64,000 bases of DNA from a virus. Its lineage: Duplodnaviria; Caudoviricetes. The DNA lies in the IMG/VR virus record IMGVR_UViG_3300042291_001013. The stretch is one strand, 5' to 3'. The translations under genes and the position numbers were made by a program. Positions within the stretch are counted from its first letter, which is position 1, and each line of letters begins with the position of its first letter. Below the pieces are notes generated by a model. It was not told the origin of the DNA and made no database searches. It saw only the letters and a program-made list of their open reading frames with translations. Positions 32,720 through 51,845 of the stretch are shown piece by piece.

Positions 32720-33325
32720 TTACATTGTAGGACCGTTGCCGTTCCTAAATCCAATCTCACCACCTTCTGCTGTGATACGCTTATAAACGTCTTCCAACAA
32801 GATAGGTGCAAAATCTGTTTGCTCCACGCATACGCAATGGTAACGCACATCAATTTCGTTACTGTACAATACTGTACCAGTTTTGGCATCAACCCCACGT
32901 GCTCTCTTAACACGGCTGGCATGCAAGTGTCCGTGAATGTTCACACCAAAGCGACCAATGCTGGCCTCATGCACAGGAATGTGACTCAAGATCATGCCGT
33001 TCAACACATGATACGCTCGCAACTCACGAAAGTACTCACGGTACTCGTCATCACGAAAAATGTCATGGTTGCCGCGGATCAATACTTTGTCGCCGTTCAA
33101 GCGAGCCAATGTTTTCAAGGCCTTGCGGTTGATAACAACATCACCCAAGTGGTAAATCTTGTCGCCGGGACGAACAGTATCGTTCCATCGACGGATCATT
33201 TCCTCATCCATCTCATCAGGATCATCCCATGGACGCAACTTCACGGTGTCGTCATCAGGATGTGTAAACTTACACACCCCAGCATGACCAAAGTGCGTGT
33301 CACTGACTAAAAATACTGCTGGCAT
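32720..33325 (-). CDS. Calcineurin-like metallophosphoesterase
   Basis: SDTHFGH, HLGD, GNHD, HGHLH. Confidence 0.9.
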   Translation of the reverse strand: MPAVFLVSDTHFGHAGVCKFTHPDDDTVKLRPWDDPDEMDEEMIRRWNDTVRPGDKIYHLGDVVINRKALKTLARLNGDKVLIRGNHDIFRDDEYREYFRELRAYHVLNGMILSHIPVHEASIGRFGVNIHGHLHASRVKRARGVDAKTGTVLYSNEIDVRYHCVCVEQTDFAPILLEDVYKRITAEGGEIGFRNGNGPTM

Positions 33326-33326
33326 A

Positions 33327-33800
33327 TTATTCTCCTACTATCCAAATTTCTTTAAAACCTTCATCTAACGATGGGGGTTCAAAACCTGTAATCATCTTTT
33401 CCATCACATCTGCTGGAATGTTCTTACCAGGGCGATTTGCCAATCTACGTACCAACTCTTGTGGCCCAGGCACTTTGAATACCACAGCAATGTGTTCGTA
33501 TTGTGAAGGCAACAGTGTGTTAAACTTCTTTTTACGACTTGCTACTGTAGTGCTTGTTTGGTCCCAGATAAAGTCCAAGTTGTTAGCTTGACAAGTCAAC
33601 GCATGGTTCACCATCAAACGAACTGCAATAGGCATGTATTCGTCAAACACTTCACTATATGTTTTACCCTGGCGGTGTGCCTCTATTTCAACATACATAT
33701 CAGTACCAACCACTGGCATACCTAAAGCCCAGATTTGATTTTTAATCCAAGTACTTTTACCCGAGCCCGGGACCCCGATTAATTGATAACACTTGTTCAT
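33327..33800 (-). CDS. P-loop polynucleotide kinase-like protein
   Basis: GVPGSGKST, DQT, RLANR lid; start at 33800 after AAGGAG. Confidence 0.8.
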   Translation of the reverse strand: MNKCYQLIGVPGSGKSTWIKNQIWALGMPVVGTDMYVEIEAHRQGKTYSEVFDEYMPIAVRLMVNHALTCQANNLDFIWDQTSTTVASRKKKFNTLLPSQYEHIAVVFKVPGPQELVRRLANRPGKNIPADVMEKMITGFEPPSLDEGFKEIWIVGE

Positions 33801-34288
33801 ATATCTCCTTCGCGGGCTTTTGGGATCACAAAGCCCCAATCTGTTGTTTCACCATTGATGGTGTGTTTTTCGTCTTCGTCGTAAGTCCAACCCAACACCT
33901 TCATCATCCGGTGCTTGACCAACAAGTTGGGGCTACGGAACGATTCAGTATCCTTGAATCCTAACATCACACCAATCTCACAAACTGCACCTGAACGACA
34001 CACACCTGCATGACAATGCACGATGACATTCATGCGTTGCTCTTGTGCATGTTGCAATAGTCGAACCAGTTCTTGTGCCTGTTCATCTGTGCATTTGCAC
34101 TCGTCAGGGAAAAATTTATCGTCCTGTTCGGCATCCAAGAATTCAAACTGGTGAACTTCGCGGAACTGATACTTGGGTACAGGGAATTCGTATGCAGGAT
34201 CCACAATCTGAATCAGCATGGAATTAACGCCAGGGTCAATATGAAACCCCTGCCGAATGTCACTCATGCTAACGTTTTGAATCCACAT
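33797..34288 (-). CDS. Cysteine (PTP/DSP-like) phosphatase
   Basis: HCHAGVCRS (CX5R). Confidence 0.8.
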   Translation of the reverse strand: MWIQNVSMSDIRQGFHIDPGVNSMLIQIVDPAYEFPVPKYQFREVHQFEFLDAEQDDKFFPDECKCTDEQAQELVRLLQHAQEQRMNVIVHCHAGVCRSGAVCEIGVMLGFKDTESFRSPNLLVKHRMMKVLGWTYDEDEKHTINGETTDWGFVIPKAREGDI

Positions 34289-38257: not shown

Positions 38258-38332
38258 TGGTAGGCCTTGAGAGGATCGAACTCCCACCGCTTGTTTCGAA
38301 GACAAGCATGATATCCATTTCACCAAAGGCCT
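38258..38332 (-). tRNA. tRNA-Arg(UCG)
   Basis: Cloverleaf; loop CTTCGAA; CCA encoded. Confidence 0.92.
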
Positions 38333-38335
38333 ATG

Positions 38336-38409
38336 TGGTGCTCTCAACAAGAATTGAACTTGTGTTTCATCCTTACCAAGGATGTGTAATGCCATTATAC
38401 TATGAGAGC
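38336..38409 (-). tRNA. tRNA-Thr(GGU)
   Basis: Loop TTGGTAA; CCA. Confidence 0.92.
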
Positions 38410-38413
38410 TAAG

Positions 38414-38487
38414 TGGAGCAGGATACCAGAATCGAACTGGTGACTGGACCTTGGCAAGGTTCTATTTTACCCCTAAACTAATCCTGC
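38414..38487 (-). tRNA. tRNA-Gly(GCC)
   Basis: Loop TTGCCAA; U73-CCA. Confidence 0.9.
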
Positions 38488-38500
38488 AATTTTTTACTTA

Positions 38501-38974
38501 TTAGGCTGCTCGTAGACTTTTGAATCTATCTGCCGCGTATGATGCCGCAAATGCTTCTGGCTTCACAAACGGGATCACATTGCATGTTCCTTTAATGTAG
38601 CCTACAGCTTGTGAAATCACACAGCTTGATCCGTGCATTTCGTTTGGGTTGATGTCCAAGTGAACTTCAACTTCACGGCCTTCTAGCACATCGGCCAGCT
38701 TCAAATACAATTCGCTAACCTTGTATACTTCTGTCATGAGTCGCATGGCCGGCTTGCTTGGTTTTTGATCGTAAACACGTTCTCGGTGTACTTCGCCAAA
38801 CAGTTTGCAACCGTTGTTGCCGTTGATGTGTACCACAATGGCCAGCACATAGTCAGCATACCAAGCACCGTCAATTTTGATTCGTTCCGAGTCGCAGCCA
38901 AGATAGATTCGAGTTTCGGGTGTTTGGGCCCGGATAAACTCTGCTACTTGATTGATGTCTAGTTTTTTCATCAT
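38501..38974 (-). CDS. RNase H-like YkuK (DUF458) family protein
   Basis: IYLGCDS, EVHLDIN, FAASYAAD; start MMKKL at 38974. Confidence 0.8.
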   Translation of the reverse strand: MMKKLDINQVAEFIRAQTPETRIYLGCDSERIKIDGAWYADYVLAIVVHINGNNGCKLFGEVHRERVYDQKPSKPAMRLMTEVYKVSELYLKLADVLEGREVEVHLDINPNEMHGSSCVISQAVGYIKGTCNVIPFVKPEAFAASYAADRFKSLRAA

Positions 38975-39014
38975 TGTCTTTCTATTTAACTCGGGAACCG
39001 TTACAGTTTTATTA

Positions 39015-39094
39015 TGGTACCCCTGCTCAGATTCGAACTGAGAACATATACTCCCTTTTGAGGAGAGTGACTTTACCAATTTGTCCACAGGGGC
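39015..39094 (-). tRNA. tRNA-Leu(CAA), short variable region
   Basis: Loop CTCAAAA; 8-nt variable region. Confidence 0.85.
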
Positions 39095-39109
39095 ACAGCG
39101 TTTGAAATT

Positions 39110-39186
39110 TGGTGCCCCAGGGGAGACTCGAACTCCCAAAATTTGGCTTCTAAGACCAACACGTATACCAATTCCGTCACCGGGGC
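39110..39186 (-). tRNA. tRNA-Leu(UAG), short variable loop
   Basis: Loop CTTAGAA; 5-nt variable loop. Confidence 0.88.
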
Positions 39187-39197
39187 TTAAATACAAT

Positions 39198-39413
39198 ATG
39201 CACGAAAAGGAAAAAATCTATGTTAAAGATCTCTACAGATTGTTCTGTACAGAACTTTACACAACTACCGCAAGTTGGGTAACCGCAAAACACTTTGTGG
39301 CCGACCCTTTGCTGGATCTGAAAAAAGAATTTATTCCTGATGCTACATTGGTACCAGGAGACGGGATCGAACCGCCCACACCTTGTGCTTCAAACAAGTG
39401 CTCTACCAACTGA
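39198..39413 (+). CDS. Possible antisense micro-ORF MHEKEKIY...
   Basis: TAAATA 4 nt before ATG; 3' part overlaps tRNA-Phe in antisense. Confidence 0.35.
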   Translation: MHEKEKIYVKDLYRLFCTELYTTTASWVTAKHFVADPLLDLKKEFIPDATLVPGDGIEPPTPCASNKCSTN

Positions 39414-39424
39414 GCTATCCTGGC
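39349..39424 (-). tRNA. tRNA-Phe(GAA)
   Basis: Loop TTGAAGC. Confidence 0.93.
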
Positions 39425-39430
39425 AATATT

Positions 39431-39505
39431 TGGTACCTGGTCACGGTTTCGAACCGCGGACCCTCTCCGTGTAAAGGAGACGCTCTACCCCTGAGCTAAC
39501 CAGGC
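39431..39505 (-). tRNA. tRNA-Val(UAC)
   Basis: Loop TTTACAC. Confidence 0.93.
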
Positions 39506-39514
39506 AAACTATTT

Positions 39515-39606
39515 TGGCGGAAGACGGAGGAGTCGAACCCCATCCCTGTTAAGAGAACCTGGTTTTCAAGGCCAGTCGCGGGACCAACCCCACTGCATCA
39601 TCTTCC
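39515..39606 (-). tRNA. tRNA-Ser(UGA), probable 8/4 fold
   Basis: Loop CTTGAAA; GGAAGATG/CGTCTTCC acceptor; 4-bp T-stem; long variable arm; G73. Confidence 0.85.
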
Positions 39607-39611
39607 ATATA

Positions 39612-39688
39612 TGGTCGGAATGACACGGTTCGAACGTGCGACCACTGCGTCCCAAACGCAGAGCTCTACCAGGCTGAGCTACATTCCG
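39612..39688 (-). tRNA. tRNA-Pro(UGG)
   Basis: Loop TTTGGGA; C1-G72. Confidence 0.93.
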
Positions 39689-39696
39689 AATTAAAC

Positions 39697-39915
39697 TTAC
39701 TTTAACTTGGGATCAATTGACTTATCAACTTCGTGCGGTTCTGCAAACCTAGGAGTTGGCTGATCCCAATACGCTGGAAAGATCTTCCAGCCAAAACTTT
39801 TCCAGTAACGATGAATGATGTTGTTTATCACAACAACCCCAGCCACGATTACAATTACACCTGTCATTGTTAAAACACTGCCGGCTAAAAATACTGCCGC
39901 TTGATCCATATCCAT
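39697..39915 (-). CDS. Small single-pass membrane protein
   Basis: Hydrophobic N-terminal helix. Confidence 0.65.
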   Translation of the reverse strand: MDMDQAAVFLAGSVLTMTGVIVIVAGVVVINNIIHRYWKSFGWKIFPAYWDQPTPRFAEPHEVDKSIDPKLK

Positions 39916-39939
39916 ATTTGTAAATCCTTTGGAGTTGTG

Positions 39940-40557
39940 TTATTTCAGCATCAATTCCACAGGATCAATAATGGGCATGGTTGCCAGCATGATCCTGGGA
40001 TATTTTGCATCAGGCCCCGGCATAACCCTGTGAGGGATATAACTGTTGAAAACAATAGGATGCTCATGCATGTTATACCTCAGCAAACAAGGATACTGAT
40101 CTTGTACAGTGTGATGTAACACAGAAAAATTATACTGTTCTGTGCCTGTGTATGGGTTTGTCATAACCGGGAGCCGATTCATGGCTTCCTTGGGAATATC
40201 ATACCACTCTGTATAAACATCCTCAGTGTTGTAGATTGGAAAGTTTATTTTGAAGTTCATGGGCGGTGCATCGTTGTGCAACACAACCCCATCGGTCATA
40301 CCTTCTGTCAGCAATCCCACTGTGATTTCTTTGATAGGCAGGTTGACTCGAAACATAAATCGCAACAAATTTGGACACACCTTGGCCATTTGTTTGTAAT
40401 CTATCAGATGCCAGAACTTTTTTTCTTGTTTTTCGTTTAGAAAATCAGTGTTATCTACAACCCAGTTCATTATCTCTTCTTTGATTTGATCAAGGTTGTC
40501 ACACTCAAGTTCGTGTATACATTTGAAACGACTTTGGTCTGGGATATAATCAATCAT
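39940..40557 (-). CDS. Putative 2OG-Fe(II)/cupin oxygenase within the tRNA array
   Basis: LHND..PHRV..RIML; TAAATA 4 nt before ATG. Confidence 0.55.
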   Translation of the reverse strand: MIDYIPDQSRFKCIHELECDNLDQIKEEIMNWVVDNTDFLNEKQEKKFWHLIDYKQMAKVCPNLLRFMFRVNLPIKEITVGLLTEGMTDGVVLHNDAPPMNFKINFPIYNTEDVYTEWYDIPKEAMNRLPVMTNPYTGTEQYNFSVLHHTVQDQYPCLLRYNMHEHPIVFNSYIPHRVMPGPDAKYPRIMLATMPIIDPVELMLK

Positions 40558-40582
40558 GATATATTTACTACCTACAATTATT

Positions 40583-40656
40583 TGGAGCAGGGTAGGGGAA
40601 TCGAACCCCTCGCTTTAGCTTGGAAGGCTAAGGTATTACCACTATACGAACCCTGC
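40583..40656 (-). tRNA. tRNA-Gly(UCC)
   Basis: Loop CTTCCAA. Confidence 0.94.
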
Positions 40657-40668
40657 GTTGAATTACTT

Positions 40669-40697
40669 ATTATACAGCATCTTAGCAATACTGTAAA
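40669..40697 (-). promoter_or_regulatory. Promoter TTTACA-17-TATAAT
   Basis: Direct match upstream of tRNA-Gly(UCC). Confidence 0.75.
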
Positions 40698-40704
40698 GCA
40701 ATTT

Positions 40705-40779
40705 TGGTAGCCATGGACAATTTCGAAATGTCGACCTAACGCTTATCAAGCGTTTGCTCTTCCTCTGAGCTACACGGCT
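40705..40779 (-). tRNA. tRNA-Ile(GAU)
   Basis: Loop TTGATAA. Confidence 0.88.
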
Positions 40780-40788
40780 AAATATTGA

Positions 40789-40962
40789 ATGCACATTGAC
40801 GTCTATCTACAAAAACAGTTGTACTGCACCATTGAACTAAGTCAGCCCGGTTACAATGTGCCTGCTATCTTGGATCAAATCCAAAGTGATCGCGAAGCTG
40901 GCAACTTGACCTGGGTACAGTGGGATCAGCCGCTTGACTTTGAAGTCAAATACTTTGAATAA
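40789..40962 (+). CDS. 57-aa antisense-oriented protein MHIDVYLQKQ...
   Basis: Fills an inter-tRNA spacer exactly; TAAATA 4 nt before ATG. Confidence 0.6.
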   Translation: MHIDVYLQKQLYCTIELSQPGYNVPAILDQIQSDREAGNLTWVQWDQPLDFEVKYFE

Positions 40963-40964
40963 CT

Positions 40965-41038
40965 TGGCACGGGAACTAGGGCTCGAACCTAGAATGACAG
41001 AGTCAAAGTCTGTAGTGTTACCATTACACTATTCCCGA
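40965..41038 (-). tRNA. tRNA-Gln(UUG)
   Basis: Loop CTTTGAC; 1-72 mismatch; G73. Confidence 0.92.
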
Positions 41039-41046
41039 ACAAAACT

Positions 41047-41121
41047 TGGTGGATGTAAGTAGATTCGAACTACTGACCTGCCGCGTATGAAGCGAATGCA
41101 CTACCGCTGTGCTATACATCC
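41047..41121 (-). tRNA. tRNA-Met(CAU), probably elongator
   Basis: Loop TTCATAC; G1-C72; Met versus Ile2 is an inference. Confidence 0.75.
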
Positions 41122-41124
41122 GAT

Positions 41125-41199
41125 TGGGGTATCCAATGAGAATTGAACTCATGATAGCGGAATCACAATCCGCGGTTTTACCACTAAACTATGGACACC
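41125..41199 (-). tRNA. tRNA-His(GUG)
   Basis: Loop TTGTGAT; G-1 opposite C73. Confidence 0.93.
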
Positions 41200-41200
41200 A

Positions 41201-41314
41201 TATAGGAGCACTCTCAACAGCAGGCCTAGGAGGCAATCTGGTTGCTGAAACTTTTGCATCTGCAGATACTAGGCTTCTTCTCCCGCGTTGACTTACGCCA
41301 AGAATGCTTTTATA
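41201..41314 (-). ncRNA. Stem-enclosed structured spacer RNA
   Basis: 12/14-bp closing stem; GNRA (GUAA) hairpin; GCCTAG/CTAGGC helix. Confidence 0.5.
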
Positions 41315-41388
41315 TGGTAGGGGTGTTCGGGAACGATCCGAATTTTACTGGTTAAAAGCCAGTTACTTCACCTTAAAGTTTCACCCCC
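41315..41388 (-). tRNA. tRNA-Lys(UUU), non-canonical core
   Basis: Loop CTTTTAA; A8/U14 and A54/U58. Confidence 0.85.
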
Positions 41389-41417
41389 ATAGGTTTATCA
41401 CTCTTGTCACTAGTCAT
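41373..41417 (-). CDS. 14-aa mini-ORF MTSDKSDKPMGVKL overlapping the tRNA-Lys 5' end
   Basis: AAGGAG 7 nt upstream of ATG. Confidence 0.4.
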   Translation of the reverse strand: MTSDKSDKPMGVKL

Positions 41418-41439
41418 GACAGATCTCCTTTTAAAAAAT

Positions 41440-41516
41440 TGGTACCACCTGAGAGATTCAAACTCCCGACCCCTAAGTTCGTAGCCTAGTGCTCTGTTCA
41501 GCTGAGCTAAGGTGGT
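41440..41516 (-). tRNA. tRNA-Arg(ACG)
   Basis: Loop CTACGAA; T-loop TTTGAAT. Confidence 0.88.
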
Positions 41517-41520
41517 GTGT

Positions 41521-41596
41521 TGGTGCCCCTTGTCCGACTCGAACAGACCACCTACTGCTTACAAAACAGTTGCTCTACCGGATGAGCTAAAGGGGC
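41521..41596 (-). tRNA. tRNA-Thr(UGU)
   Basis: Loop TTTGTAA. Confidence 0.92.
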
Positions 41597-41603
41597 AAAT
41601 TGT

Positions 41604-41693
41604 TGGCGGTGCGAAAGAGACTCGAACTCTTAAAGCGGCTTTCACCACTCGACGGATTAGCAATCCGCTCCAATACCATTATGGGACCGCACC
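41604..41693 (-). tRNA. tRNA-Ser(GCU)
   Basis: Loop TTGCTAA; long variable arm; 7/5 fold. Confidence 0.92.
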
Positions 41694-41700
41694 TCAAATT

Positions 41701-41776
41701 TGGCTCCCCAGCGTGGGATCGAACCACGGACACCTTGATTAACAGTCAAGTGCAACTACCGCTGTGCTACTAGGGA
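41701..41776 (-). tRNA. tRNA-Asn(GUU)
   Basis: Loop CTGTTAA. Confidence 0.93.
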
Positions 41777-41786
41777 ATAATCTACT

Positions 41787-41808
41787 TAGTAGGCACTCAT
41801 GCCTACTA
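41787..41808. other. Perfect 9-bp spacer hairpin
   Basis: TAGTAGGCA-CTCA-TGCCTACTA. Confidence 0.7.
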
Positions 41809-41817
41809 TCAAAAACT

Positions 41818-41894
41818 TGGCGACCCGGGAAGGATTTGAACCTCCGACATTTGGTTTTGGAGACCAACGTTCTGCCAGACTGAACTACCGAGCC
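41818..41894 (-). tRNA. tRNA-Trp(CCA)
   Basis: Loop CTCCAAA; G73. Confidence 0.92.
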
Positions 41895-41899
41895 ATATT

Positions 41900-41974
41900 T
41901 GGTGGAGGATAAGAGAATTGAACTCTTTTGACCTACGTGCAAGGCAGGCATAATACCCAGTATATGAATCCCCC
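41900..41974 (-). tRNA. tRNA-Ala(UGC)
   Basis: Loop CTTGCAC; G3-U70. Confidence 0.9.
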
Positions 41975-42004
41975 AAATTTTCAAACACACTGTTTCCAAT
42001 GTGT

Positions 42005-42060
42005 GTATTAAAGCACTCTAAAATACTTAGGCTGCCTGTTCGTAAAGAATGCTTTAATAC
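42005..42060 (-). ncRNA. 15-bp processing-type stem in spacer
   Basis: GTATTAAAGCATTCT pairs with AGAGTGCTTTAATAC. Confidence 0.6.
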
Positions 42061-42156
42061 GCTGTAATTTTTTATCTCACAAAAGAGACTCTATCCTACA
42101 GGCCGCCCATTTGTAGTTTAGAGTGATACCGGCTCTCGTTGCCATTGCACTAAATG

Positions 42157-42185
42157 AAAAACCCTGGAGTGTTTAGTTCCAGGGT
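42157..42185 (-). terminator. Intrinsic terminator of attenuator B
   Basis: ACCCTGGA-9nt-TCCAGGGT followed by TTTT. Confidence 0.85.
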
Positions 42186-42208
42186 CTTGTTGAATTTGTC
42201 AGTTACTT

Positions 42209-42343
42209 TTATGCGTAACCTGCACCTTCAATAGACCCCGACATCCCTAGAATACTATTCACGCGACCAGAGGCGTGTGACCAGGTAAATGTTGCCTGGA
42301 GCATCGCGGGTTTTGTCGACAGTGAACGGAATGTTGTTTTCAT
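42209..42343 (-). CDS. 44-aa leader peptide B (MKTTFRSLST...GAGYA)
   Basis: Promoter and AGGA RBS upstream; stop sits in the loop of the putative antiterminator. Confidence 0.65.
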   Translation of the reverse strand: MKTTFRSLSTKPAMLQATFTWSHASGRVNSILGMSGSIEGAGYA

Positions 42344-42353
42344 CTTAAGTCCT

Positions 42354-42382
42354 ATTGTAGTTTATTTATGATTGTTTGTCAA
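42354..42382 (-). promoter_or_regulatory. Sigma70 promoter TTGACA-17-TACAAT with embedded TAAATA
   Basis: Direct sequence match. Confidence 0.85.
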
Positions 42383-42398
42383 TCACAAATGGTAAAAT

Positions 42399-42473
42399 TG
42401 GTTGCGGGTGAAGGATTCGAACCTCCGTCTTCTAGGTTATGAGCCTAGTAGTCTACCACTGACGTAACCCGCG
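42399..42473 (-). tRNA. tRNA-fMet(CAU)-like
   Basis: C1-A72 mismatch; loop CTCATAA; only two G-C pairs next to the loop. Confidence 0.85.
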
Positions 42474-42491
42474 TTAACTTTTATTTATATC

Positions 42492-42567
42492 TGGAGTAGG
42501 TGACAGGACTCGAACCTGCATTTTACGGATTTGCAATCCGGCGCCTAACCATTCGGCACACACCTAC
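42492..42567 (-). tRNA. tRNA-Cys(GCA)
   Basis: Loop TTGCAAA; U73. Confidence 0.88.
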
Positions 42568-42577
42568 ACTAATTGAA

Positions 42578-42790
42578 TTTGCAAGTAGTTGCTCCATCGT
42601 TATAGCAACCATTCACCCGTGTAATAAACTCGAGCGGGACTCGGTACGTCACTTGGGATACTAGTCCAGTTTGTCTCCGTTACAGACACCACCCTTGCGA
42701 GTGGTTGGGAGTTGAACCCATCACCTTCTACTGTTTTGGTCCTTCGAAGAAACCTAGACAGCATGACATTCTCTTGCTGACACTTACAAA
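42578..42790 (-). ncRNA. Unassigned ~210-nt structured RNA with a T-arm-like hairpin
   Basis: 10-bp terminal stem TTTGTAAGTG/TACTTGCAAA; TGGG-TTCAACT-CCCA; several internal hairpins. Confidence 0.65.
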
Positions 42791-42793
42791 ACT

Positions 42794-42868
42794 TGGCGAT
42801 GCATGGGAGAATCGAACTCCCGTCTCCGGATAGACAATCCGGGATAATGACCATTATATGAATGCACC
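42794..42868 (-). tRNA. tRNA-Asp(GUC), canonical core
   Basis: Loop TTGTCTA; G73. Confidence 0.9.
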
Positions 42869-42875
42869 TTAAACT

Positions 42876-42950
42876 TGGCGGTCCCAGGGGGTAACGATCC
42901 CCCTCTTCAGCAGTGACAGTGCTGTGTGCGTCCATGAACACCTTGAGACC
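42876..42950 (-). tRNA. tRNA-Asp(GUC), non-canonical core
   Basis: Loop CTGTCAC; A8/U14 and A54/U58. Confidence 0.82.
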
Positions 42951-42957
42951 AATTTTT

Positions 42958-43100
42958 ATAGTTAAGCACCGAGAATGCCAATTTAGGAGTCCGGTGCTTC
43001 TGTTCCAAAGCCGATGCAGTTATATCAGGATCAGTCGCCGGCCGCTGTGACCCGAATAGTGTAAGCGTCCTTACACGATACCTTATCGGTGCTTAACTAT
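42958..43100 (-). ncRNA. Stem-enclosed structured RNA
   Basis: Perfect 15-bp inverted repeat ATAGTTAAGCACCGA; inner GTGTAAG/CTTACAC hairpin. Confidence 0.6.
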
Positions 43101-43110
43101 AAAAACAAAA

Positions 43111-43310
43111 ATGCTCTGCATCCCCCGGCGGTAATTGTAGTACATCAAGATACGACGCTATCGTACCCATCACACGTACCTTCCACCCGCTTCCCGACAG
43201 GGACCGTTATCGCATTGCTAGCGGCCTTTGGGTTCAAAGACTACCACCCGTAGCTGTCACGCTACTTCTCATCGTGTGGGTCACACTATCCGGAGACACC
43301 CGGAACGTTC
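43111..43310 (-). ncRNA. Candidate GC-rich structured RNA directly after tRNA-Tyr
   Basis: Hairpins TCCGG/CCGGA, GTAGC/GCTAC, CTTTG/CAAAG, TACGA/TCGTA; no plausible ORF. Confidence 0.5.
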
Positions 43311-43311
43311 T

Positions 43312-43397
43312 TGGTGGAGATGGATGGATTTGAACCACCGCGCTTTTTACAGAACAGATTTACAGTCTGCCGCCTTCAACCACTCGGCCACATCTCC
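43312..43397 (-). tRNA. tRNA-Tyr(GUA)
   Basis: Loop CTGTAAA; long variable arm. Confidence 0.93.
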
Positions 43398-43405
43398 AAA
43401 AAAGG

Positions 43406-43468
43406 GAGAGCTACGGTTGCAGGACCTAGTGCCTCTTGCGAGGGAAGTATCCAGGCGATGTAGCTCTC
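43406..43468 (-). ncRNA. 63-nt rod-like spacer RNA
   Basis: GAGAGCTAC/GTAGCTCTC, CCTGG/CTAGG, CCTC-GCAA-GAGG. Confidence 0.5.
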
Positions 43469-43472
43469 AAAC

Positions 43473-43547
43473 TGGTAGAGCGTAGGAGAGTCGAACTCCT
43501 CTTATGCGGATGAAAACCGCATGTCCTAACCGATAGACGAACGCTCC
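43473..43547 (-). tRNA. tRNA-Glu(UUC)
   Basis: Loop TTTTCAT. Confidence 0.92.
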
Positions 43548-44547: not shown

Positions 44548-44576
44548 ATTATATTAGGCTTTCTGAATTTTGTCAA
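44548..44576 (-). promoter_or_regulatory. Consensus promoter TTGACA-17-TATAAT for tmRNA
   Basis: Perfect consensus. Confidence 0.9.
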
Positions 44577-45498
44577 CCAAACCGGCACTGAATGTGTTGG
44601 CAAATTGATCATATACTTTGGCAGTTACCTTGCGAAAAGTTTGCTCATCAGCATCGCTAAATTTAATAACACGAATGCCATCTTGCTCACAACGTGCCTT
44701 GGTAGGCTCAACTTCGGCCACAGCCACAGCACGCTCAAAACGTCCAGCTTCTAATGCCGCATCTTTCATGACCTGTTGCAGGTCTGCAGACAAGCCAGCC
44801 AAGAAGTTCTTGTTCACAATGATGTTAGTCAACAACAAGCGATGGTTGGGTTCCAAGATAGATTCAGCAACTTCGTTTTGTTGGCAAGCATAGATACGTG
44901 GCCATGAGCTTTCGCCGCCATCAATAGCACCATCTCGGATGCCTTCGGCCACACGTTCAACGTCCATCACAACTGGATCAGCGCCCAGGGCAGTCCATGT
45001 AGCGGCTGCAACTGGTGAATTTGACACACGCACTTTAACGCCGGCCATTTCACTTAGACTTGCAACGTCACGATTCATGGGCATGTTCATAAAGCCACCT
45101 GAGTAGGTAAATGCCATGCCTTTGATGTTGCTGTTCTTGGCGTAACCATCCAGCAAACTCTCGCCAATTTCACTTTCAAACACACGTGCCGCGTGATCGT
45201 GATCACGGAACAAGAAAGGCAAATCAAGTGCGTCAAGATCATTGTTGTACTTGCTGAGTACATAAGTGTACATCTGGCTCATTTCAATAGCGCCAGTGTC
45301 CATAACATCCAACAGGTTATGTTTGGTGATTGGTTCACCATGATTGTACTTGCTGGTATACTCGCTTAGAGTCAGCACTTCAATCTCAAACTGTCCTGGT
45401 GCACGGGCTTCTACTACTTCAGTAAATTTTTCAGCGGCACGAATAAAAATGTCAATAGGTTCATGGGCTAATACCCATTTGATGTGGATAGGTTTCAT
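44554..45498 (-). CDS. TRAP transporter substrate-binding protein (DctP family), no visible signal peptide
   Basis: LDLPFLFRD, GVKVRV, LGADPV, IDGGE; start may be 45528. Confidence 0.85.
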   Translation of the reverse strand: MKPIHIKWVLAHEPIDIFIRAAEKFTEVVEARAPGQFEIEVLTLSEYTSKYNHGEPITKHNLLDVMDTGAIEMSQMYTYVLSKYNNDLDALDLPFLFRDHDHAARVFESEIGESLLDGYAKNSNIKGMAFTYSGGFMNMPMNRDVASLSEMAGVKVRVSNSPVAAATWTALGADPVVMDVERVAEGIRDGAIDGGESSWPRIYACQQNEVAESILEPNHRLLLTNIIVNKNFLAGLSADLQQVMKDAALEAGRFERAVAVAEVEPTKARCEQDGIRVIKFSDADEQTFRKVTAKVYDQFANTFSAGLVDKIQKA

Positions 45499-45683
45499 AA
45501 TATTTTTTCCTTGAGTAATAGCTTGCATGTGTATGCTACGGTGGGCGTTCTAGGTATTGTGCTAGTAAAGGGCATTGCCCAAGCGTCCATTATTTCCGAC
45601 GTCAGCCCCTGCTGGCGTTGCTAGAATTATTTAGCTTTTGCAAGCGTCTTGTATAGCATTTTTAAGGCATTAGTGCGCAATTG

Positions 45684-46868
45684 TTAAAATTTAAAATGAT
45701 TGTTGATACCTGAGCTTTCAAAGTCAGCTTCGCCCAGGTAATAAAAGGGTGATAAAAACCCCACAAAGCCAACTGCTTGCCCCATTTCTCTGTTGAAGTA
45801 CTTGCTGTCAATAGTTTTTACTAGATGTGCAAGACCCGCTTGCCATTTGGCATACTGTGCAGTTTCTTTAAAGTTGGTATAAAACCAATGATCCATCTCG
45901 TTGTAAAAACTGTTGGTTGGTTTACTGGTCTGGAATGTTTCTTGATTGTACTGTGGGTAGATTAACGGCTTGATCAAGTGCTCGTATGTTGTTCGATGGG
46001 TGTAGCTGTAGTTTGGCCAACGGCACACATACTGCATGTGTTTGTTGTGCTCTAGCATAAACCAGTTCTTGACCATGTGGCATTGTTTGATAAACATCTC
46101 TGGCAAGTCAGGCGTCCAATAAAAATATTCGTTGGTCATGTTGGTATAATCACCAAAATCACCCATGCTATGATTGGCCATAACATCAATAAAGTAAGCG
46201 TACCACTTTTTGTCCTTGATGCATAGCTTGGGCTTGTCTACCCCGTACAAGATGCAAATGCGTTGACCAGTGTCTGCTAGCTTTTTGTGACCTACATAGC
46301 CTGTAGCTGAGTGCTTGAACGCATGTCCAGGTTGGAAATAATCTTTAGTTTTCATAACCCAAGATTCATCATACACTTGAGTTAACATGTTTTCACTGTA
46401 GTCGTGCATGGTAATTTTTGTGCGAGGTGAAGCAGTGGTCAACCAGTTCAGCACAGGATATGCCGCATAACGTGCTTCGCTTAGAGTGTTCTCAGGTTTG
46501 CAGTTAAACGGATCGTCGCTAACATCTTTCTCACCAGTCTTGGGATATCGAAAAACAACCTCATCAAGGTGTATTCCGTTGTTGATAAAGCTATACAATG
46601 CTGTAGTCGAATCTCCCCCACCAGAAAATTCTAAACGAATGTAATCGTACTTGTCCCGTAATTGTTGCGCACGAATTCGATACAGGTCTAGGATATTGAT
46701 ATTGGGTTCAACTAGCCAATTTTCGGCACCAAATATTTCGTTGCTGAAATTCCATTCGGGAAACTGATTGGTTTCTGTTGCCTTGGTCAGTGCCATGGGC
46801 TTGCTAAAAAACTTTTCAGTTCCTACAGTGTAGTACCCCAACTTGGGGTTTTGTTCAATCTTGATCAT
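45684..46868 (-). CDS. PP-loop (adenine nucleotide alpha hydrolase-like) protein
   Basis: DKYDYIRLEFSGGGDS. Confidence 0.6.
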   Translation of the reverse strand: MIKIEQNPKLGYYTVGTEKFFSKPMALTKATETNQFPEWNFSNEIFGAENWLVEPNINILDLYRIRAQQLRDKYDYIRLEFSGGGDSTTALYSFINNGIHLDEVVFRYPKTGEKDVSDDPFNCKPENTLSEARYAAYPVLNWLTTASPRTKITMHDYSENMLTQVYDESWVMKTKDYFQPGHAFKHSATGYVGHKKLADTGQRICILYGVDKPKLCIKDKKWYAYFIDVMANHSMGDFGDYTNMTNEYFYWTPDLPEMFIKQCHMVKNWFMLEHNKHMQYVCRWPNYSYTHRTTYEHLIKPLIYPQYNQETFQTSKPTNSFYNEMDHWFYTNFKETAQYAKWQAGLAHLVKTIDSKYFNREMGQAVGFVGFLSPFYYLGEADFESSGINNHFKF

Positions 46869-48478
46869 TGTGAGGTTCCAAAAAAGTTGTTGTACCAGTT
46901 GTTGGCTGACTGTGCATGCTTGGCTTGTATTTTATTTTTGCTGTTAAAGTAGTCAAAAAAGTTTATGGCCAGTTGTTCAGTTTCGTTGTCAATGTCTATT
47001 TGCCAGGGCAGATCTATGCCATAGTACATGGCCATGTTTGCTAAAGGACCTTGATACCAAAAGTGCTGAAGTTTATCATTATAGTGTCGTCTTGATTCAG
47101 ACACAACAGTGTCCTGCAGCCATTCCTTGATGCAAAGCTCTTGACCAACAGAATTCATCAATTGCCAGTATGGAGTATCGTTTTTTGGCGCTAGATACAT
47201 ACCAACTTGAATACGTTTCAGCACGTCATTATTGATGTTGTTAACAAACTGATTGTACGAATCTTTCCAGTCAAACGTTCGATCATGATCCTGCTTGATG
47301 TAATCAACCAATTGATTAATAAAAGCCAACTGAGTTGAAAATCCATTGGCGTCATATACGTCAGTAAACCCGCTGGAGATACCCAGCGTCACACAATTAG
47401 CCACAAATGTTTGTTCAAAGAATCCGGCCTGCCAAGATATTTTTCTTTTGATTGCACCCTTCATCCACGGGAACCGCTGATCAAACTCGTCAATCAACTG
47501 CTGTTCATCAGTAGTAAAGTTTTTGTTGTACACATAACCATTGCCACTGCGCCCTGGTTGTGGCAGACCAAACACCCATCCTTGACTCATGGCATAATGT
47601 CTGGACACACAATCTGATGGATTTTCTAGATCATGACGATTTGGTCCCTGCCCAACTATTGCGGCATTGTTAATAGTATCTTCAACCGGACGCCAACGAA
47701 ACGGTACAAACTGCGAAAACAATCTCTTGAACCCGGTACAGTCAACAAACAGATCTGCATGCACCTGTGAATCGTCTTCACCTACTAGGTGAGTAACTCT
47801 GGTCCCATCAAACACCACATTCTTAATTCGCAGAGCTTGAACTTTGACTCCGCAAGGAATGCCCACGCTTTCGTGAATTACGTCTTTGACATAATCAGCA
47901 TTGAAATGAAAACTTGAAACCAATCGCTTCTGTGGCAGATGCTGTTTGTTCATGATTGTTTTGTAATAGCTATACCAATAGCTTTCGCTTAGGTCGCCAG
48001 CCCTGTTTTCATTTTTACGCAGTCCTTTGTTGTATAGGTGTAACCATACGTCCCACAATGTGTATTTGTCATCTTCGGCACCCGATGCTGGACCCAGAGG
48101 TTTTGTTCTATGCCCATAGGTGTCTGTTATAGATTGTGTAATTATCTTGGCACTAGGATTCCACTGGAATCCAGAGACCATGGGTGTCTCGGTGCCATCA
48201 AATCCAAAAAATGCCACACCATACTTGTAGCTAGAATTTGATTTTTTCATCCAGTCATAAGAGCTCTCGTCATCAATGCCAAACAGTTTGCGCATAACAT
48301 CACGACAGTTAAACGCAATGCTTTCTCCGACACCGATGTAAGGAGTGTTGGGATCATGTACAATAGTCACATCAGTTCCTGGACAATTTCTTTTTATGGC
48401 GGCGGCTGCAAAATATCCAGCGGCTCCGGCGCCCACAATCACAACTTTGAGTGGCTTGGCTTCAGCATTTTTTATCAT
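46865..48478 (-). CDS. Flavin-dependent tryptophan-halogenase family protein
   Basis: VGAGAAG, IGVGES, FVDCTGF, GWVFGLP (WxWxIP-like). Confidence 0.8.
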   Translation of the reverse strand: MIKNAEAKPLKVVIVGAGAAGYFAAAAIKRNCPGTDVTIVHDPNTPYIGVGESIAFNCRDVMRKLFGIDDESSYDWMKKSNSSYKYGVAFFGFDGTETPMVSGFQWNPSAKIITQSITDTYGHRTKPLGPASGAEDDKYTLWDVWLHLYNKGLRKNENRAGDLSESYWYSYYKTIMNKQHLPQKRLVSSFHFNADYVKDVIHESVGIPCGVKVQALRIKNVVFDGTRVTHLVGEDDSQVHADLFVDCTGFKRLFSQFVPFRWRPVEDTINNAAIVGQGPNRHDLENPSDCVSRHYAMSQGWVFGLPQPGRSGNGYVYNKNFTTDEQQLIDEFDQRFPWMKGAIKRKISWQAGFFEQTFVANCVTLGISSGFTDVYDANGFSTQLAFINQLVDYIKQDHDRTFDWKDSYNQFVNNINNDVLKRIQVGMYLAPKNDTPYWQLMNSVGQELCIKEWLQDTVVSESRRHYNDKLQHFWYQGPLANMAMYYGIDLPWQIDIDNETEQLAINFFDYFNSKNKIQAKHAQSANNWYNNFFGTSQ

Positions 48479-49701
48479 GTTATCCTATAAGTGTTTTTTA
48501 AATTAACGTAACAGCCGTTGAGTGACTTGGTACCGGCAATTTCGTCCCAGTGCTTGGGTGCAATGGTTTTTACATGATTCCTAAGCCACGCAAACCCTCG
48601 TGCATAATAATTTTGTCCTAGATCAGGAGACAAACTATTCCATAACCATTCGTCACGTTGTGGCCAACTGGTGCATAATGGTTTTTTAGCCACAACAGCA
48701 TCGGGCATCCAATCTTGGTAAATTAACCTGTGCATTCCGCCCATGGTCAAGGTATAAGGTTTGTTGTTGTGGGTAAAATACACCGCTGCCAATCCTGCTG
48801 TGTCGTTAAACGAAAGGTGCAGAGATCTTGAAATTTTGCCTTCAACTACATGTTTACCATCACAGTGGCCTGGGTCAAATTTTTCACAGTAGTTTTTGAT
48901 CACATGCGCTTGTTTGCAAGGCAACATTGGAAAATCAGCACCCCAATAAAAGTACTCGTCGTATTCGCCAGGTCGATTCAGCATCTGAGCATAGCCACTA
49001 ACGCCGTGATCAAGTCCATCTCTAAAATTAACAAACCAATCTGTGCCTTGCTGTGTTATCATGGGCTTTTCAATTCCCCAAATAAAACACAGGCGTTTAC
49101 CTTGATTGATGATATTGGCGTAGTCGGGTATGTCCTGTCTAAATTGATGTCTTGACAAAGTAACTGGAGAGAAGTAATTGTTGACTCTGTAAAAGTGATC
49201 CCAGCGAGTGTTGTAATCCTTTAACAGTTTGATTTCCATGTCAGTAATATCAACCAGTCGATGTTTAGTGTTGCGATACACAGGATTGTTAGCCAGCAAC
49301 TGCTGGGTGATTGGTATACTAGTCTGTGCTAGCTCTTCATGAAAAAAAGTGGTCTTGTCATCGTGTGCGGCTTTCATGTTGGTGTACTGCGCAATCTCAT
49401 CTATAAAGATATTGTTGCGTACAAAGGTCTGCAGGATATTGTGACTGTCAGCACCGCCACTAAACCACAGCACAATGTAATCATACTGATCTCTAATTTG
49501 CCTAGCACGTTGCTCGTACCAAAAATCTAAACTGCCCGGAGGTTCCTGGGACCAGTCAACGGATTGATAGGTGTCTTGATTGTAGTGCCATTCTACTGGC
49601 AGTTTTGATTGTGCGCTGTGCTCAATTGCTTCTAGTTTGCTGTAGGTTTTACGTGGACCCACAGTGTAGAATCCATATCGATCGCGATTGTCTAGAGACA
49701 T
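48475..49701 (-). CDS. PP-loop protein, paralog of 45684..46868
   Basis: DQYDYIVLWFSGGADS; shared GFYTVG..EYFYW; start MSLDN. Confidence 0.6.
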   Translation of the reverse strand: MSLDNRDRYGFYTVGPRKTYSKLEAIEHSAQSKLPVEWHYNQDTYQSVDWSQEPPGSLDFWYEQRARQIRDQYDYIVLWFSGGADSHNILQTFVRNNIFIDEIAQYTNMKAAHDDKTTFFHEELAQTSIPITQQLLANNPVYRNTKHRLVDITDMEIKLLKDYNTRWDHFYRVNNYFSPVTLSRHQFRQDIPDYANIINQGKRLCFIWGIEKPMITQQGTDWFVNFRDGLDHGVSGYAQMLNRPGEYDEYFYWGADFPMLPCKQAHVIKNYCEKFDPGHCDGKHVVEGKISRSLHLSFNDTAGLAAVYFTHNNKPYTLTMGGMHRLIYQDWMPDAVVAKKPLCTSWPQRDEWLWNSLSPDLGQNYYARGFAWLRNHVKTIAPKHWDEIAGTKSLNGCYVNLKNTYRIT

Positions 49702-49702
49702 A

Positions 49703-50605
49703 TCAACGTCGAACGCCTTGGGCGGCTTGTTGCCAGTGCCTATTTTCCTGGGCAAAACGTTTTTCCACTTCGGCAAGACTGAGAACAGGGGTTGACAAAT
49801 ATGCATTGGCCTGACGTTGTTGTATGCCTGAGTCTGTGGCCAGCACCTCTAGGTCTCGACGATATTGAGCAATATCTGCCTCTGGAGTAGCGGCAGGCAC
49901 CAGTAACCAAAGATTGAGCACAAAATTTTCTAGTCCACGCATGCCAAGGCTGGCAAATGTGGGAATGCCTCGATGACTGCGAGTGCCTGTAATAGCGATT
50001 GGAAACAGTTGTCCACCATCAATCCAGCCTTCGCTATCAGCCAAGAATTCACTGGTTAGATCAATGTGTCCGCCTATAGCATCACGTGTGGCTTCGATGC
50101 CTCCAGGATAAAACGCCAACACCAGTTCAGTGTTGGGAAGATGTTGTTGCATGGCAATGGCCATAAGATGCGATATACTGCCCGGAACAACCCCAATGGT
50201 CAATGTGCGTTGTTGGCGTAGTTCAGCCCAGCTACGATATTTTTTGCTCATTAATACCGGCGCTTGGTCGCCAGCAAACATCATGATAGGACGGAACTGT
50301 TCAACTCGATGCGCTTCAGTTTCTTTAAACAGCAAAGGCCTGATCATAAAACTGCTGGATGCGGCCAGCACTTCTGGACGCTGTGCATTGGCCACAGAGT
50401 TTGCGGCAATACTACCACCAGCACCTGGCCGGGTTGCAAACACATAGGTGCGTTGTGTCTGTGTTTTGTTGGCCAGTGCAGTGCCTTGTCGCAACACATT
50501 GGCTGTATTGCTACCGGGACTGAATCCCCATACCACTGAAACAGTTTCAGCACTGGCGGTCACTGCCATCACACTCAAAATCAAAGTTAATAAAAATTTA
50601 TTCAT
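49703..50605 (-). CDS. Bug/TctC substrate-binding protein
   Basis: Signal peptide MNKFLLTLIL..; WGFSPGS, RPGAGGSIAA. Confidence 0.8.
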   Translation of the reverse strand: MNKFLLTLILSVMAVTASAETVSVVWGFSPGSNTANVLRQGTALANKTQTQRTYVFATRPGAGGSIAANSVANAQRPEVLAASSSFMIRPLLFKETEAHRVEQFRPIMMFAGDQAPVLMSKKYRSWAELRQQRTLTIGVVPGSISHLMAIAMQQHLPNTELVLAFYPGGIEATRDAIGGHIDLTSEFLADSEGWIDGGQLFPIAITGTRSHRGIPTFASLGMRGLENFVLNLWLLVPAATPEADIAQYRRDLEVLATDSGIQQRQANAYLSTPVLSLAEVEKRFAQENRHWQQAAQGVRR

Positions 50606-51152
50606 TGTCATTATTCTCCACAGGGATCCACCCCAATTTAAAAAAATCCTCTTGGATCTCGTCAGTGACATGACCTTCGCCCACAAAGTGTTTGTCATAC
50701 CACTCAATTCTTGCTCGTTGCTCACTAGTCAACTCCGCATCATCTGTTGCGGCACCACCACGTATGCCCGAACAATACCAGTCCATGTAGTCGCCTTGTT
50801 CACGCATGTCGGCCACAATACCCCCGGCGTAGCGCCACGAGCACGACCAAGTTTGGCCCTTCAACAATGGCCACACTGCGTTGCGTTGCCAGTCTTGATT
50901 GCACAAGGCCGCGTAGATGTTTTGTGCATACTCTTCTCGTGCTTTGGCCTTGGCACAGATCCACTCGGTACTGCGTAGATCGTATTCAAGATTGTTTTTC
51001 TTCCACTCCTCGTCAGCGTCGCGGGCAAGATCATGTGCCTTGGCATCTTCGTACATGTTCAAGTAATCCTGATTGGGCTCCTCGCCAGTTTCTTCACAGC
51101 GTTTGATATAGTTTTCTGCTTGAAAGGTATGACGTTCTTTGCTACGATTCAT
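50598..51152 (-). CDS. Hypothetical protein
   Basis: 184-aa ORF overlapping the next start. Confidence 0.75.
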   Translation of the reverse strand: MNRSKERHTFQAENYIKRCEETGEEPNQDYLNMYEDAKAHDLARDADEEWKKNNLEYDLRSTEWICAKAKAREEYAQNIYAALCNQDWQRNAVWPLLKGQTWSCSWRYAGGIVADMREQGDYMDWYCSGIRGGAATDDAELTSEQRARIEWYDKHFVGEGHVTDEIQEDFFKLGWIPVENNDNE

Positions 51153-51165
51153 GTGTGTTTTTGTT

Positions 51166-51251
51166 TGGTACCAGAGACGGGACTCGAACCCGTATGCCCT
51201 TGCGAGCGGCAGATTTTAAGTCTGCTGTGTATACCATTCCACCACTCTGGC
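51166..51251 (-). tRNA. tRNA-Leu(UAA)
   Basis: Loop CTTAAAA; long variable arm. Confidence 0.94.
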
Positions 51252-51260
51252 GAGTGTTTG

Positions 51261-51437
51261 TTAACCGCCTCGGCCGGCTGCTTTGCGAACTGGTTTACCT
51301 GCGGGTGCTAGCGGAGCAGAACGTTTGGCGGCCTTTTGCTGAGTCTTTGATAACTTTGCATCAGGATGCGCAGAGGCATTCTTTCGATCTAGTGCTTGTT
51401 TCACTGCTGTGATAAAAGGTACTGGCGTTTTTGACAT
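51261..51437 (-). CDS. 58-aa Lys/Ala-rich basic protein
   Basis: Hand translation MSKTPVPF..RKAAGRGG; GGAG RBS; TAAATA upstream. Confidence 0.65.
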   Translation of the reverse strand: MSKTPVPFITAVKQALDRKNASAHPDAKLSKTQQKAAKRSAPLAPAGKPVRKAAGRGG

Positions 51438-51450
51438 TGTTGCTCCAAGT

Positions 51451-51684
51451 TTATTTAGCGGTCAGTTGTGCCCAGGCCAACCATTGCTTAAATGCATTAT
51501 ACACTGTTTCTGCTTCTTTGTCATCCACTGGCACTCGAACTCCACGTACATAGAATCCTTCTGGAGTGACCTTTATCATTTCATCTCCATCATTTAATGT
51601 CCATGAAATTGTATTGTTATGATACAAGCCTTCGGTACTGCCGCCCATGTCTACCTGTAGTGTCTGCGGTTTGATAGGTGTCAT
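51451..51684 (-). CDS. Hypothetical protein
   Basis: Start MTPIK; an upstream extension would overlap a tRNA. Confidence 0.6.
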   Translation of the reverse strand: MTPIKPQTLQVDMGGSTEGLYHNNTISWTLNDGDEMIKVTPEGFYVRGVRVPVDDKEAETVYNAFKQWLAWAQLTAK

Positions 51685-51693
51685 GCTAGTCCT

Positions 51694-51768
51694 TGGTCCG
51701 GCGTGCAAGAATCGAACTCACATTCAAGAGGTAGAAGCTCTTTGTATTATCCATTATACTAACGCCAG
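51694..51768 (-). tRNA. tRNA-Arg(UCU)
   Basis: Loop CTTCTAC. Confidence 0.9.
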
Positions 51769-51770
51769 GT

Positions 51771-51845
51771 TGGTGGGACCACTTGGAATTGAACCAAGAC
51801 TCAATCGATTATGAGTCGACTGCTTTACCATTAAGCTATGATCCC
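51771..51845 (-). tRNA. tRNA-Ile2(CAU) (lysidine type, inferred)
   Basis: GTCGA-CTCATAA-TCGAT arm resembles the E. coli ileX arm. Confidence 0.75.

Follow-up and report, generated by a model that had tools for sequence, protein, structure and literature searches.

The stretch of DNA analysed here (hereafter, the window) comprises 64,000 nucleotides of the IMG/VR record IMGVR_UViG_3300042291_001013, from a virus of the class Caudoviricetes (Duplodnaviria). ARAGORN finds 29 transfer RNA (tRNA) genes in the window, which form a minus-strand array that serves all 20 amino acids, together with a permuted transfer-messenger RNA. Twenty-seven of these tRNAs have the near-invariant U8/A14 and U54/A58 core pairs, with UUCRANN T-loops throughout. 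The remaining two, a tRNA-Lys(UUU) (41388..41315, minus strand) and a second tRNA-Asp(GUC) (42950..42876, minus strand), show A8/U14 and A54/U58 instead, as the earlier note on this DNA had reported, and direct reading of the minus strand confirms that both core pairs are inverted, that all stems are paired and that CCA is encoded.

Arm by arm, tRNA-Lys(UUU) reads GGGGGUG AA ACUU UAAGGUG AAGU A ACUGG CUUUUAA CCAGU AAAA UUCGG AUCGUUC CCGAA CACCCCU A CCA, with A8, U14, A54 and U58 at positions 41381, 41375, 41337 and 41333. It has a D-loop UAAGGUG, a T-loop AUCGUUC, a four-nucleotide variable loop, A15/A48 and A73; the window has no other Lys tRNA. The second tRNA-Asp(GUC) reads GGUCUCA AG GUGU UCAUGGAC GCAC A CAGCA CUGUCAC UGCUG AAGA GGGGG AUCGUUA CCCCC UGGGACC G CCA, with A8, U14, A54 and U58 at positions 42943, 42937, 42898 and 42894, and has C15/A48, a D-loop UCAUGGAC and a T-loop AUCGUUA. 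Neither tRNA shows the usual combination of U8-A14 with A21, having instead A8/U14 with G21 (Lys) or C21 (Asp); likewise, the combination of U54-A58 with a pyrimidine at position 60 is replaced by A54/U58 with C60 (Lys) or A60 (Asp). In each case the pair is inverted, not lost. G18, G19, U55 and C56 are present in both tRNAs, and both anticodon loops, CUUUUAA in Lys and CUGUCAC in Asp, have U33 and a purine at position 37. The inverted tRNA-Asp retains G10, G2-C71, C38 and G73, which, along with G34-U35-C36, are identity elements of the Escherichia coli type for Asp, as are A73 and U35 for Lys.

Compared with the class I elongator tRNAs of bacteria and phages described by the Rfam tRNA model (RF00005), the two inverted tRNAs share the cloverleaf of 7, 4, 5 and 5 base pairs, the seven-nucleotide anticodon loop with its U33 and purine 37, the G18-G19 and U55-C56 nucleotides, a discriminator base that matches the amino acid and the encoded CCA. 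They differ from them in A8/U14, A54/U58, the absence of A at position 21, A at position 48, A or C at position 60 and a variable loop of four nucleotides. ARAGORN detects both genes. The Rfam model, which has a gathering threshold of 29 bits, scores tRNA-Lys(UUU) at 48.5 bits, and the inverted tRNA-Asp falls below its detection, being absent from the Rfam tRNA output even at E ≤ 10 in a 421-nucleotide search.

The window stretch is contained in at least 14 lake-water metagenome runs, and no closely related isolate phage was found among 50,697 isolate records. Of the IMG/VR contigs, 18 contain one exact 38-mer taken from the Lys gene, and degenerate baits based on the D-arm matched at least 118 contigs for Lys and at least 120 for Asp in that database, with lengths of up to approximately 525 kb. 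Double-inverted tRNA-Lys(UUU) is present in 82 of the fetched loci and double-inverted tRNA-Asp in 122, with both occurring together in 11. Among the isolate records, the Lys family is represented only by Synechococcus phage BUCT-ZZ01, whose gene is 78% identical to that of the window, with stem changes that are compensated in the D-arm, the anticodon arm and the T-arm, and the Asp family only by Ralstonia phage RSP15 (NC_030948), where the gene lacks annotation. Four tRNAs found by ARAGORN in RSP15 (Glu, Cys, the double-inverted Asp and Val; 7415-7493, 7910-7983, 8001-8076 and 10207-10281) are absent from its RefSeq annotation.

Family alignments were built from 26 unique Lys sequences (A1) and 57 unique Asp sequences (A2). 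The D-arms are invariant in both alignments because the D-arm was the bait with which the sequences were collected; the T-loops lay outside the bait, and there A54/U58 is found in 23 of the 26 Lys and 56 of the 57 Asp sequences. Neither family varies at G18, G19, U55 or C56, the nucleotides that lock the elbow, and the T-loop part of this conservation is independent of the bait. Helix positions are paired in 95.5% (Lys) and 95.9% (Asp) of alignment cells, and 14 pairs in each family have changed on both sides. None of 500 shuffles reached the observed pairing or covariation in either family, and in a control with the partners slid by one to three columns the pairing fell to 34–56%. Purifying selection acts on the cloverleaf. 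Both families keep U33, a purine at position 37 and CCA, together with A73 and U35 in Lys, and G73, G34-U35-C36, C38, G10 and G2-C71 in Asp. An interpretation of the two genes as decaying pseudogenes or gene-finder artefacts could appeal to the invisibility of the Asp gene to the Rfam tRNA model; against it stand the conserved homologues, which number in the hundreds, with their compensatory changes, and we reject this interpretation, which is contradicted by the covariation counts, as scarcely credible.

The composition of the arrays points in the same direction. In the 106 fetched loci with at least 18 tRNAs, the inverted tRNA-Asp is the sole Asp tRNA in 63 and the inverted tRNA-Lys is the sole Lys(UUU) tRNA in 27. 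In four lake metatranscriptomes, contigs span both genes, which is a weak indication of transcription, as level, strand and ends cannot be read from such contigs and carry-over of DNA may contribute. Given the covariation, the retained identity nucleotides and CCA, and the arrays with a sole isoacceptor, we conclude that both genes are selected and presumably work as elongator tRNAs, in line with the earlier note, which had favoured selection over decay.

A further alternative is that the genes encode mimics or decoys with the outline of a tRNA that do not decode, and that soak up a host factor or serve in processing or priming. The tRNA arrays of phage T5 are annotated with tRNA-like stable RNAs of unknown function, and the failure of the Rfam tRNA model on the Asp gene would suit a molecule of this kind. 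The anticodon loops are standard (U33, purine 37), however, A73 in Lys, G73, C38, G10 and G2-C71 in Asp, and CCA are conserved, and most near-complete arrays that hold an inverted form have it as their only Lys or Asp tRNA. We therefore regard the mimic interpretation as very improbable.

The relation between the two inversions was examined in an index of the fetched phage loci, which comprised 2,696 unique tRNAs with validated structures. At positions 54/58, UA occurs 2,419 times, AU 205, AA 32, CA 18, GG 10 and UU not at all. At positions 8/14, the counts are 2,249 for UA, 161 for AU, 25 for AA and 111 for UU, the last of which may be an indexing artefact. Double inversions are distributed among Asp (69), Lys(UUU) (25), Lys(CUU) (3), His (1) and Gly (1). 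The single inversions have other distributions, with A54/U58 alone in Ile(GAU) (42), Glu (17), His (12), Asn (9) and Thr(GGU) (9), and A8/U14 alone in Lys(CUU) (12), Pro (11), Thr(UGU) (7), Gly(UCC) (6) and His (6). Outside Lys and Asp there are two double inversions, against approximately two expected if the inversions were independent, next to approximately 43 tRNAs with A8/U14 alone and 106 with A54/U58 alone.

A second set of baits fixed the anticodon loop and the inverted T-loop only, with no requirement on the D-arm. For Asp(GUC), these baits returned from new loci 11 unique double-inverted sequences and 10 unique single-inverted ones with U8/A14; for Lys(UUU), the corresponding numbers were 17 and 31. 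Revertants of the T-loop (UUCGAUA and CUCGAUA) that retain A8/U14 occur in the Asp family in near-identical sequences, and the Lys family also includes G54/G58, A54/C58 and G54/C58. On rough trees of 70-nucleotide sequences, built after masking of the trait columns, the fewest changes required at 8/14 and 54/58 were 1 and 2 on the Asp tree, 5 and 4 on the Lys tree, 0 and 17 on the Ile tree, 0 and 6 on the Glu tree, and 1 and 4 on the His tree, counts of independent origin that are rough and indicative because trees of this length are poorly resolved. A tree test of coupling between the inversions had too few independent pairs (four to five for Lys, one for Asp). These data show that the two inversions are separable, arising and reverting independently. 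The outcome for the co-occurrence of all four changes across homologues, proposed earlier as a check, is thus mixed: it holds for most members of the Lys and Asp families, and single inversions and T-loop revertants also exist. Their joint transmission in Lys and Asp reflects a small number of lineages, not an obligatory coupling.

The tRNAs with A54/U58 alone, which include the annotated tRNA-Asn of RSP15 (T-loop AUCGUAC) and the Ile(GAU), Glu, His, Asn and Thr(GGU) tRNAs from IMG/VR, resemble the window pair in their AUCGU-N-A/C T-loop, in the change of U60 to A or C, in G57 and U59, and in their enrichment in phages. They retain U8/A14/A21, whereas the window pair has the 8-14 pair inverted as well. 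The same arrays contain further unusual cores. Among them, an initiator-like Met tRNA has A8/A14, Tyr tRNAs have C8/C14 or C8/U14, Ser and Cys tRNAs have G8/G14, and a tRNA-Glu(UUC) has A54/A58 in a T-loop AUCGAAA. The sites of these cores are IMG/VR loci and a locus of BUCT-ZZ01 (11859-11933, minus strand).

Each inversion is accompanied by changes at third positions. An A stands at position 21 in 86% of canonical tRNAs, in 18% of those with A8/U14 alone and in approximately none of the double-inverted ones. Position 48 is A in 51–87% of tRNAs with A8/U14 and in 5% of canonical ones, and position 13 is U in 84–100% of tRNAs with A8/U14. In the T-loop, U occupies position 60 in 84% of canonical tRNAs and in none of those with A54/U58, which have A or C there; in the latter, position 57 is G (99%) and position 59 is mostly U. 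This pattern, a sequence signature, fits an inverted trans Watson-Crick/Hoogsteen pair within a retained T-loop/D-loop architecture. A different fold could also be envisaged, in which Watson-Crick pairing of A54 with U58 lengthens the T stem and leaves a three-nucleotide loop, with loss of the elbow and of the L-shape. The occurrence of A-U and of one G-C combination at 54/58 in the Lys family would agree with such a pair. Against it, G18, G19, U55 and C56 do not vary and R57 is retained, the G54/G58 and A54/C58 variants suit a pair of the Hoogsteen type and not a Watson-Crick pair, and position 60 co-varies as the T-loop motif would require. On the covariation and loop-conservation data the Watson-Crick pair with loss of the elbow was rejected; we consider it highly unlikely.

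Each of the two tRNAs belongs to a family that is widespread among phages and probably old, in which U8-A14 was exchanged for A8-U14 and U54-A58 for A54-U58, under the retained architecture both as trans Watson-Crick/Hoogsteen pairs. The purine would then present its Hoogsteen edge from the opposite strand, and the L-shape would consequently be retained by a re-packed core. Each inversion brings its own adjustment, at positions 21, 48 and 13 for A8/U14 and at position 60 for A54/U58. The A54/A58 and A8/A14 combinations, which are present in the same phages, may represent a one-step path between the two states.

Known departures from the canonical T-loop offer a partial parallel. The T-loop of eukaryotic initiator tRNA has A54, A58 and A60, and the in vivo selection of Zagryadskaya et al. 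2003 reportedly yielded G54-A58 and G54-G58 variants; to our knowledge, A54/U58 was not recovered in it. Both share with the phage tRNAs a purine at position 54, an altered position 60 and a retained T-loop fold, and differ from them in keeping a purine at position 58; A54/U58 is a true inversion. G54/G58 and A54/A58 occur naturally in the phage families described here. No description of A54-U58 or A8-U14 in a tRNA was found in the literature searched.

The inverted cores also bear on modification. Because A8, A54 and U58 are present, the substrate bases for 4-thiouridine at position 8 (s4U8), 5-methyluridine at position 54 (m5U54) and 1-methyladenosine at position 58 (m1A58) are missing, and, judged from the primary structure, such tRNAs should be unable to receive any of the three modifications. 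The loss of s4U8 and m5U54 that had been predicted for the two tRNAs agrees with the A found at positions 8 and 54.

Common in phages, the inversions are all but missing from the cellular genomes sampled. With the Lys D-arm bait, four of 120 matches on genome contigs were tRNAs, all in dense phage-like arrays on contigs of metagenome-assembled genomes; the other 116 were rejected as chance 17-mers outside tRNAs. In 401 Pseudomonadota genomes, the inverted-T-loop pattern of Asp gave 22 matches, none in a tRNA, and that of Lys gave nine, one of them in a tRNA with U8/A14; both numbers are close to the chance level. A canonical pattern, run as a control on five genomes, matched all five. The single cellular case is a tRNA-Lys(UUU) with a T-loop AUCGUAC (A54/U58) and U8/A14 in a 5.4-Mb Pseudomonadota genome (G229, C1:3976513-3979542, locus positions 1471-1545).

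A tRNA-Asp(GUC) with a canonical core (U8/A14, U54/A58) adjoins the inverted one (42794..42868, minus strand; Rfam tRNA 53.5 bits, with alignment; the fold given by ARAGORN is shifted). The earlier note regarded it as a natural control. It is not a clean one, because A10 and G2-U71 are present and the anticodon loop reads UUGUCUA (U32, U37, A38). A pyrimidine at position 37 is rare, and such a change in the anticodon loop is expected to affect anticodon nucleases. The UUGUCUA loop was found again in at least 18 unique Asp tRNAs with canonical cores (13 and 5) from related phage contigs. The inverted tRNA-Asp has the standard CUGUCAC loop, and the odd loop thus sits in its canonical-core neighbour instead.

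Taken together, we consider it probable, with moderate confidence, that the tRNAs described here are working elongator tRNAs of a large phage from lake water, with tolerated, compensated inverted cores rather than a purpose-built anti-nuclease device. Such cores may have become fixed in phage tRNAs, which would be less bound to host modification and quality control, and may then have been retained because single reversions would be harmful. Several points weigh against this interpretation. The invariance of the D-arms was imposed by the baits, the counts of origins come from poorly resolved trees, and tRNA function is here deduced from conservation. The neutral 'frozen compensation' is a hypothesis, and the enrichment in phages could equally reflect positive selection, as could the concentration of the inversions in Lys, Asp, Ile, Glu, His, Asn and Thr. 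The two Asp tRNAs of the window, each unusual at a different place, look like a case of functional differentiation. Finally, the tRNA-Thr(UGU) of phage T5, one of three T5 tRNAs reported as sufficient to neutralise the PARIS defence system, has A8/U14/G21, although a contribution of A8/U14 to this activity is hypothetical. This tRNA (NC_005859, 28667-28741) has A8, A9, U13, U14, G21 and a D-loop ending in GGUG, in the style of the D-arm of the window Lys family, and differs from it in its canonical T-loop (UUCGAUU) and in its isoacceptor.

In the main alternative, the inverted core and the changes in the D- and T-loops make the phage tRNA a poor substrate for tRNA-directed host immunity or toxins. 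The hypothetical candidates are PARIS-type Toprim nucleases and tRNases that cut the T-loop or the acceptor, and the tRNA could also be exempt from modifications that such systems need. We hold this alternative to be possible though doubtful. PrrC and colicin E5 recognise and act on the anticodon loop, and for these two the standard CUGUCAC loop of the inverted tRNA-Asp counts against the proposal. AriB, which cleaves between positions 40 and 41 and reads U36-A-A-U39 (preprint 10.1101/2025.02.04.636281), likewise gives no support to evasion through the elbow. Inverted tRNAs are, moreover, just two of the 29 tRNAs of the phage. The inversions are also independent and toggle repeatedly, with up to approximately 17 changes at 54/58 on the poorly resolved 70-nucleotide Ile tree, a behaviour as compatible with a low-barrier alternative state as with adaptation.

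Other data are more favourable to evasion. The second subunit of AriB reads U16/U17 of the D-loop and further parts of the tRNA; the nuclease requires contacts in the D-loop and more besides the anticodon stem (preprint 10.1101/2025.02.04.636281). The window tRNA-Lys has no U16/U17 and has C39 where the U36-A-A-U39 motif has U39. At the sites relevant to AriB it carries C39, C40, A41 and A16, with no U17, and some of these differ from the cleavable E. coli tRNA, whose determinants may not be those of the host in question. The A8/U14/G21 core of the PARIS-neutralising T5 tRNA-Thr(UGU), the near restriction of the inversions to phages and the two differently altered Asp tRNAs of the window would also be in keeping with evasion. 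A P-loop kinase adjoins a metallophosphoesterase a few kb away, which is the domain pair of the RNA-repair enzyme Pnkp; by contrast, no RNA ligase was found in the window open reading frames (ORFs) scanned. Overall, evasion of nucleases through the elbow gains no support from the analyses made here and is weakly suggested at most. A broader version, in which these would be 'stealth' tRNAs that are usable by the ribosome, EF-Tu and the synthetases and pass unrecognised by host nucleases and toxins and by the enzymes that form s4U8, m5U54 and m1A58, appears rather unlikely to us. As part of that same version, the double-inverted Lys and Asp families would be the fullest form of the strategy.

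U8-A14 and T54-A58 are taught as near-invariant, and two large families that invert both pairs amount to a natural experiment on the tRNA core. They also have a practical consequence, as phage tRNA repertoires are undercounted because the Rfam model misses the inverted tRNA-Asp and the RefSeq annotation of RSP15 lacks it; a phage may in this way wrongly appear to have no Asp tRNA. Bacterial immunity targets tRNAs, and the A8/U14 D-arm common to the window tRNAs and a PARIS-rescuing T5 tRNA provides a concrete and testable hypothesis.

The tRNA genes of the window lie in two blocks. The main block (38258..43547, minus strand) contains both inverted tRNAs among its 26 ARAGORN tRNAs, and one Ser-like gene that is reported by Rfam only. 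The second, small block (51166..51845, minus strand) contains Leu(UAA), Arg(UCU) and Met(CAU) tRNAs, all three with canonical cores by ARAGORN. The Ser-like gene, a type II tRNA-like gene missed by ARAGORN, is located at 39519-39606 (minus strand) between tRNA-Val and tRNA-Pro. It is matched by the Rfam tRNA-Sec model with 36.9 bits, which is under the gathering score, and has an odd D-arm. The start of its acceptor (GGAAGAU) and an anticodon loop CUUGAAA, with anticodon UGA, make tRNA-Ser(UGA) its most likely identity.

A region between tRNA-Cys and the canonical-core tRNA-Asp (42603-42785) stands out in the four lake metatranscriptomes, with a summed contig depth of up to approximately 3 × 10^4 as compared with tens at the flanking tRNAs, a depth that may come in part from look-alikes of other organisms. 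Exact contigs of 86–96 nucleotides span 42658/42668-42753. The region holds a T-arm-like GGGUUCAACUCCC and has a weak match to the tRNA-Sec model at 42697-42777 (15.8 bits); it matches no Rfam family, and the fold of the intergenic segment 42568-42793 is not significant (z = −1.47). It may correspond to an abundant small stable RNA akin to the 'stable RNAs of unknown function' of the T5 tRNA region.

The kinase and phosphoesterase genes noted above belong to a row of three small ORFs at 32720-34288 (minus strand), which encode a calcineurin-like metallophosphoesterase, an AAA_33 P-loop kinase and a dual-specificity phosphatase. Kinase and phosphoesterase domains are paired in Pnkp-type enzymes for RNA end healing; among the approximately 50 window ORFs scanned, none is an RNA (tRNA-repair) ligase. 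Genes of metabolic type are numerous on both sides of the main array, in 1-37963 and 44554-50725. They include a run of five radical-SAM-like ORFs (4143-12583), a carbamoyltransferase, an AMP-binding enzyme, an NAD epimerase, an S-adenosylhomocysteine hydrolase, a MoxR-type AAA protein with a VWA/DUF2201 partner, an AhpC-type peroxiredoxin, a class II aldolase, DctP and TctC solute-binding proteins and a flavoenzyme resembling tryptophan halogenase.

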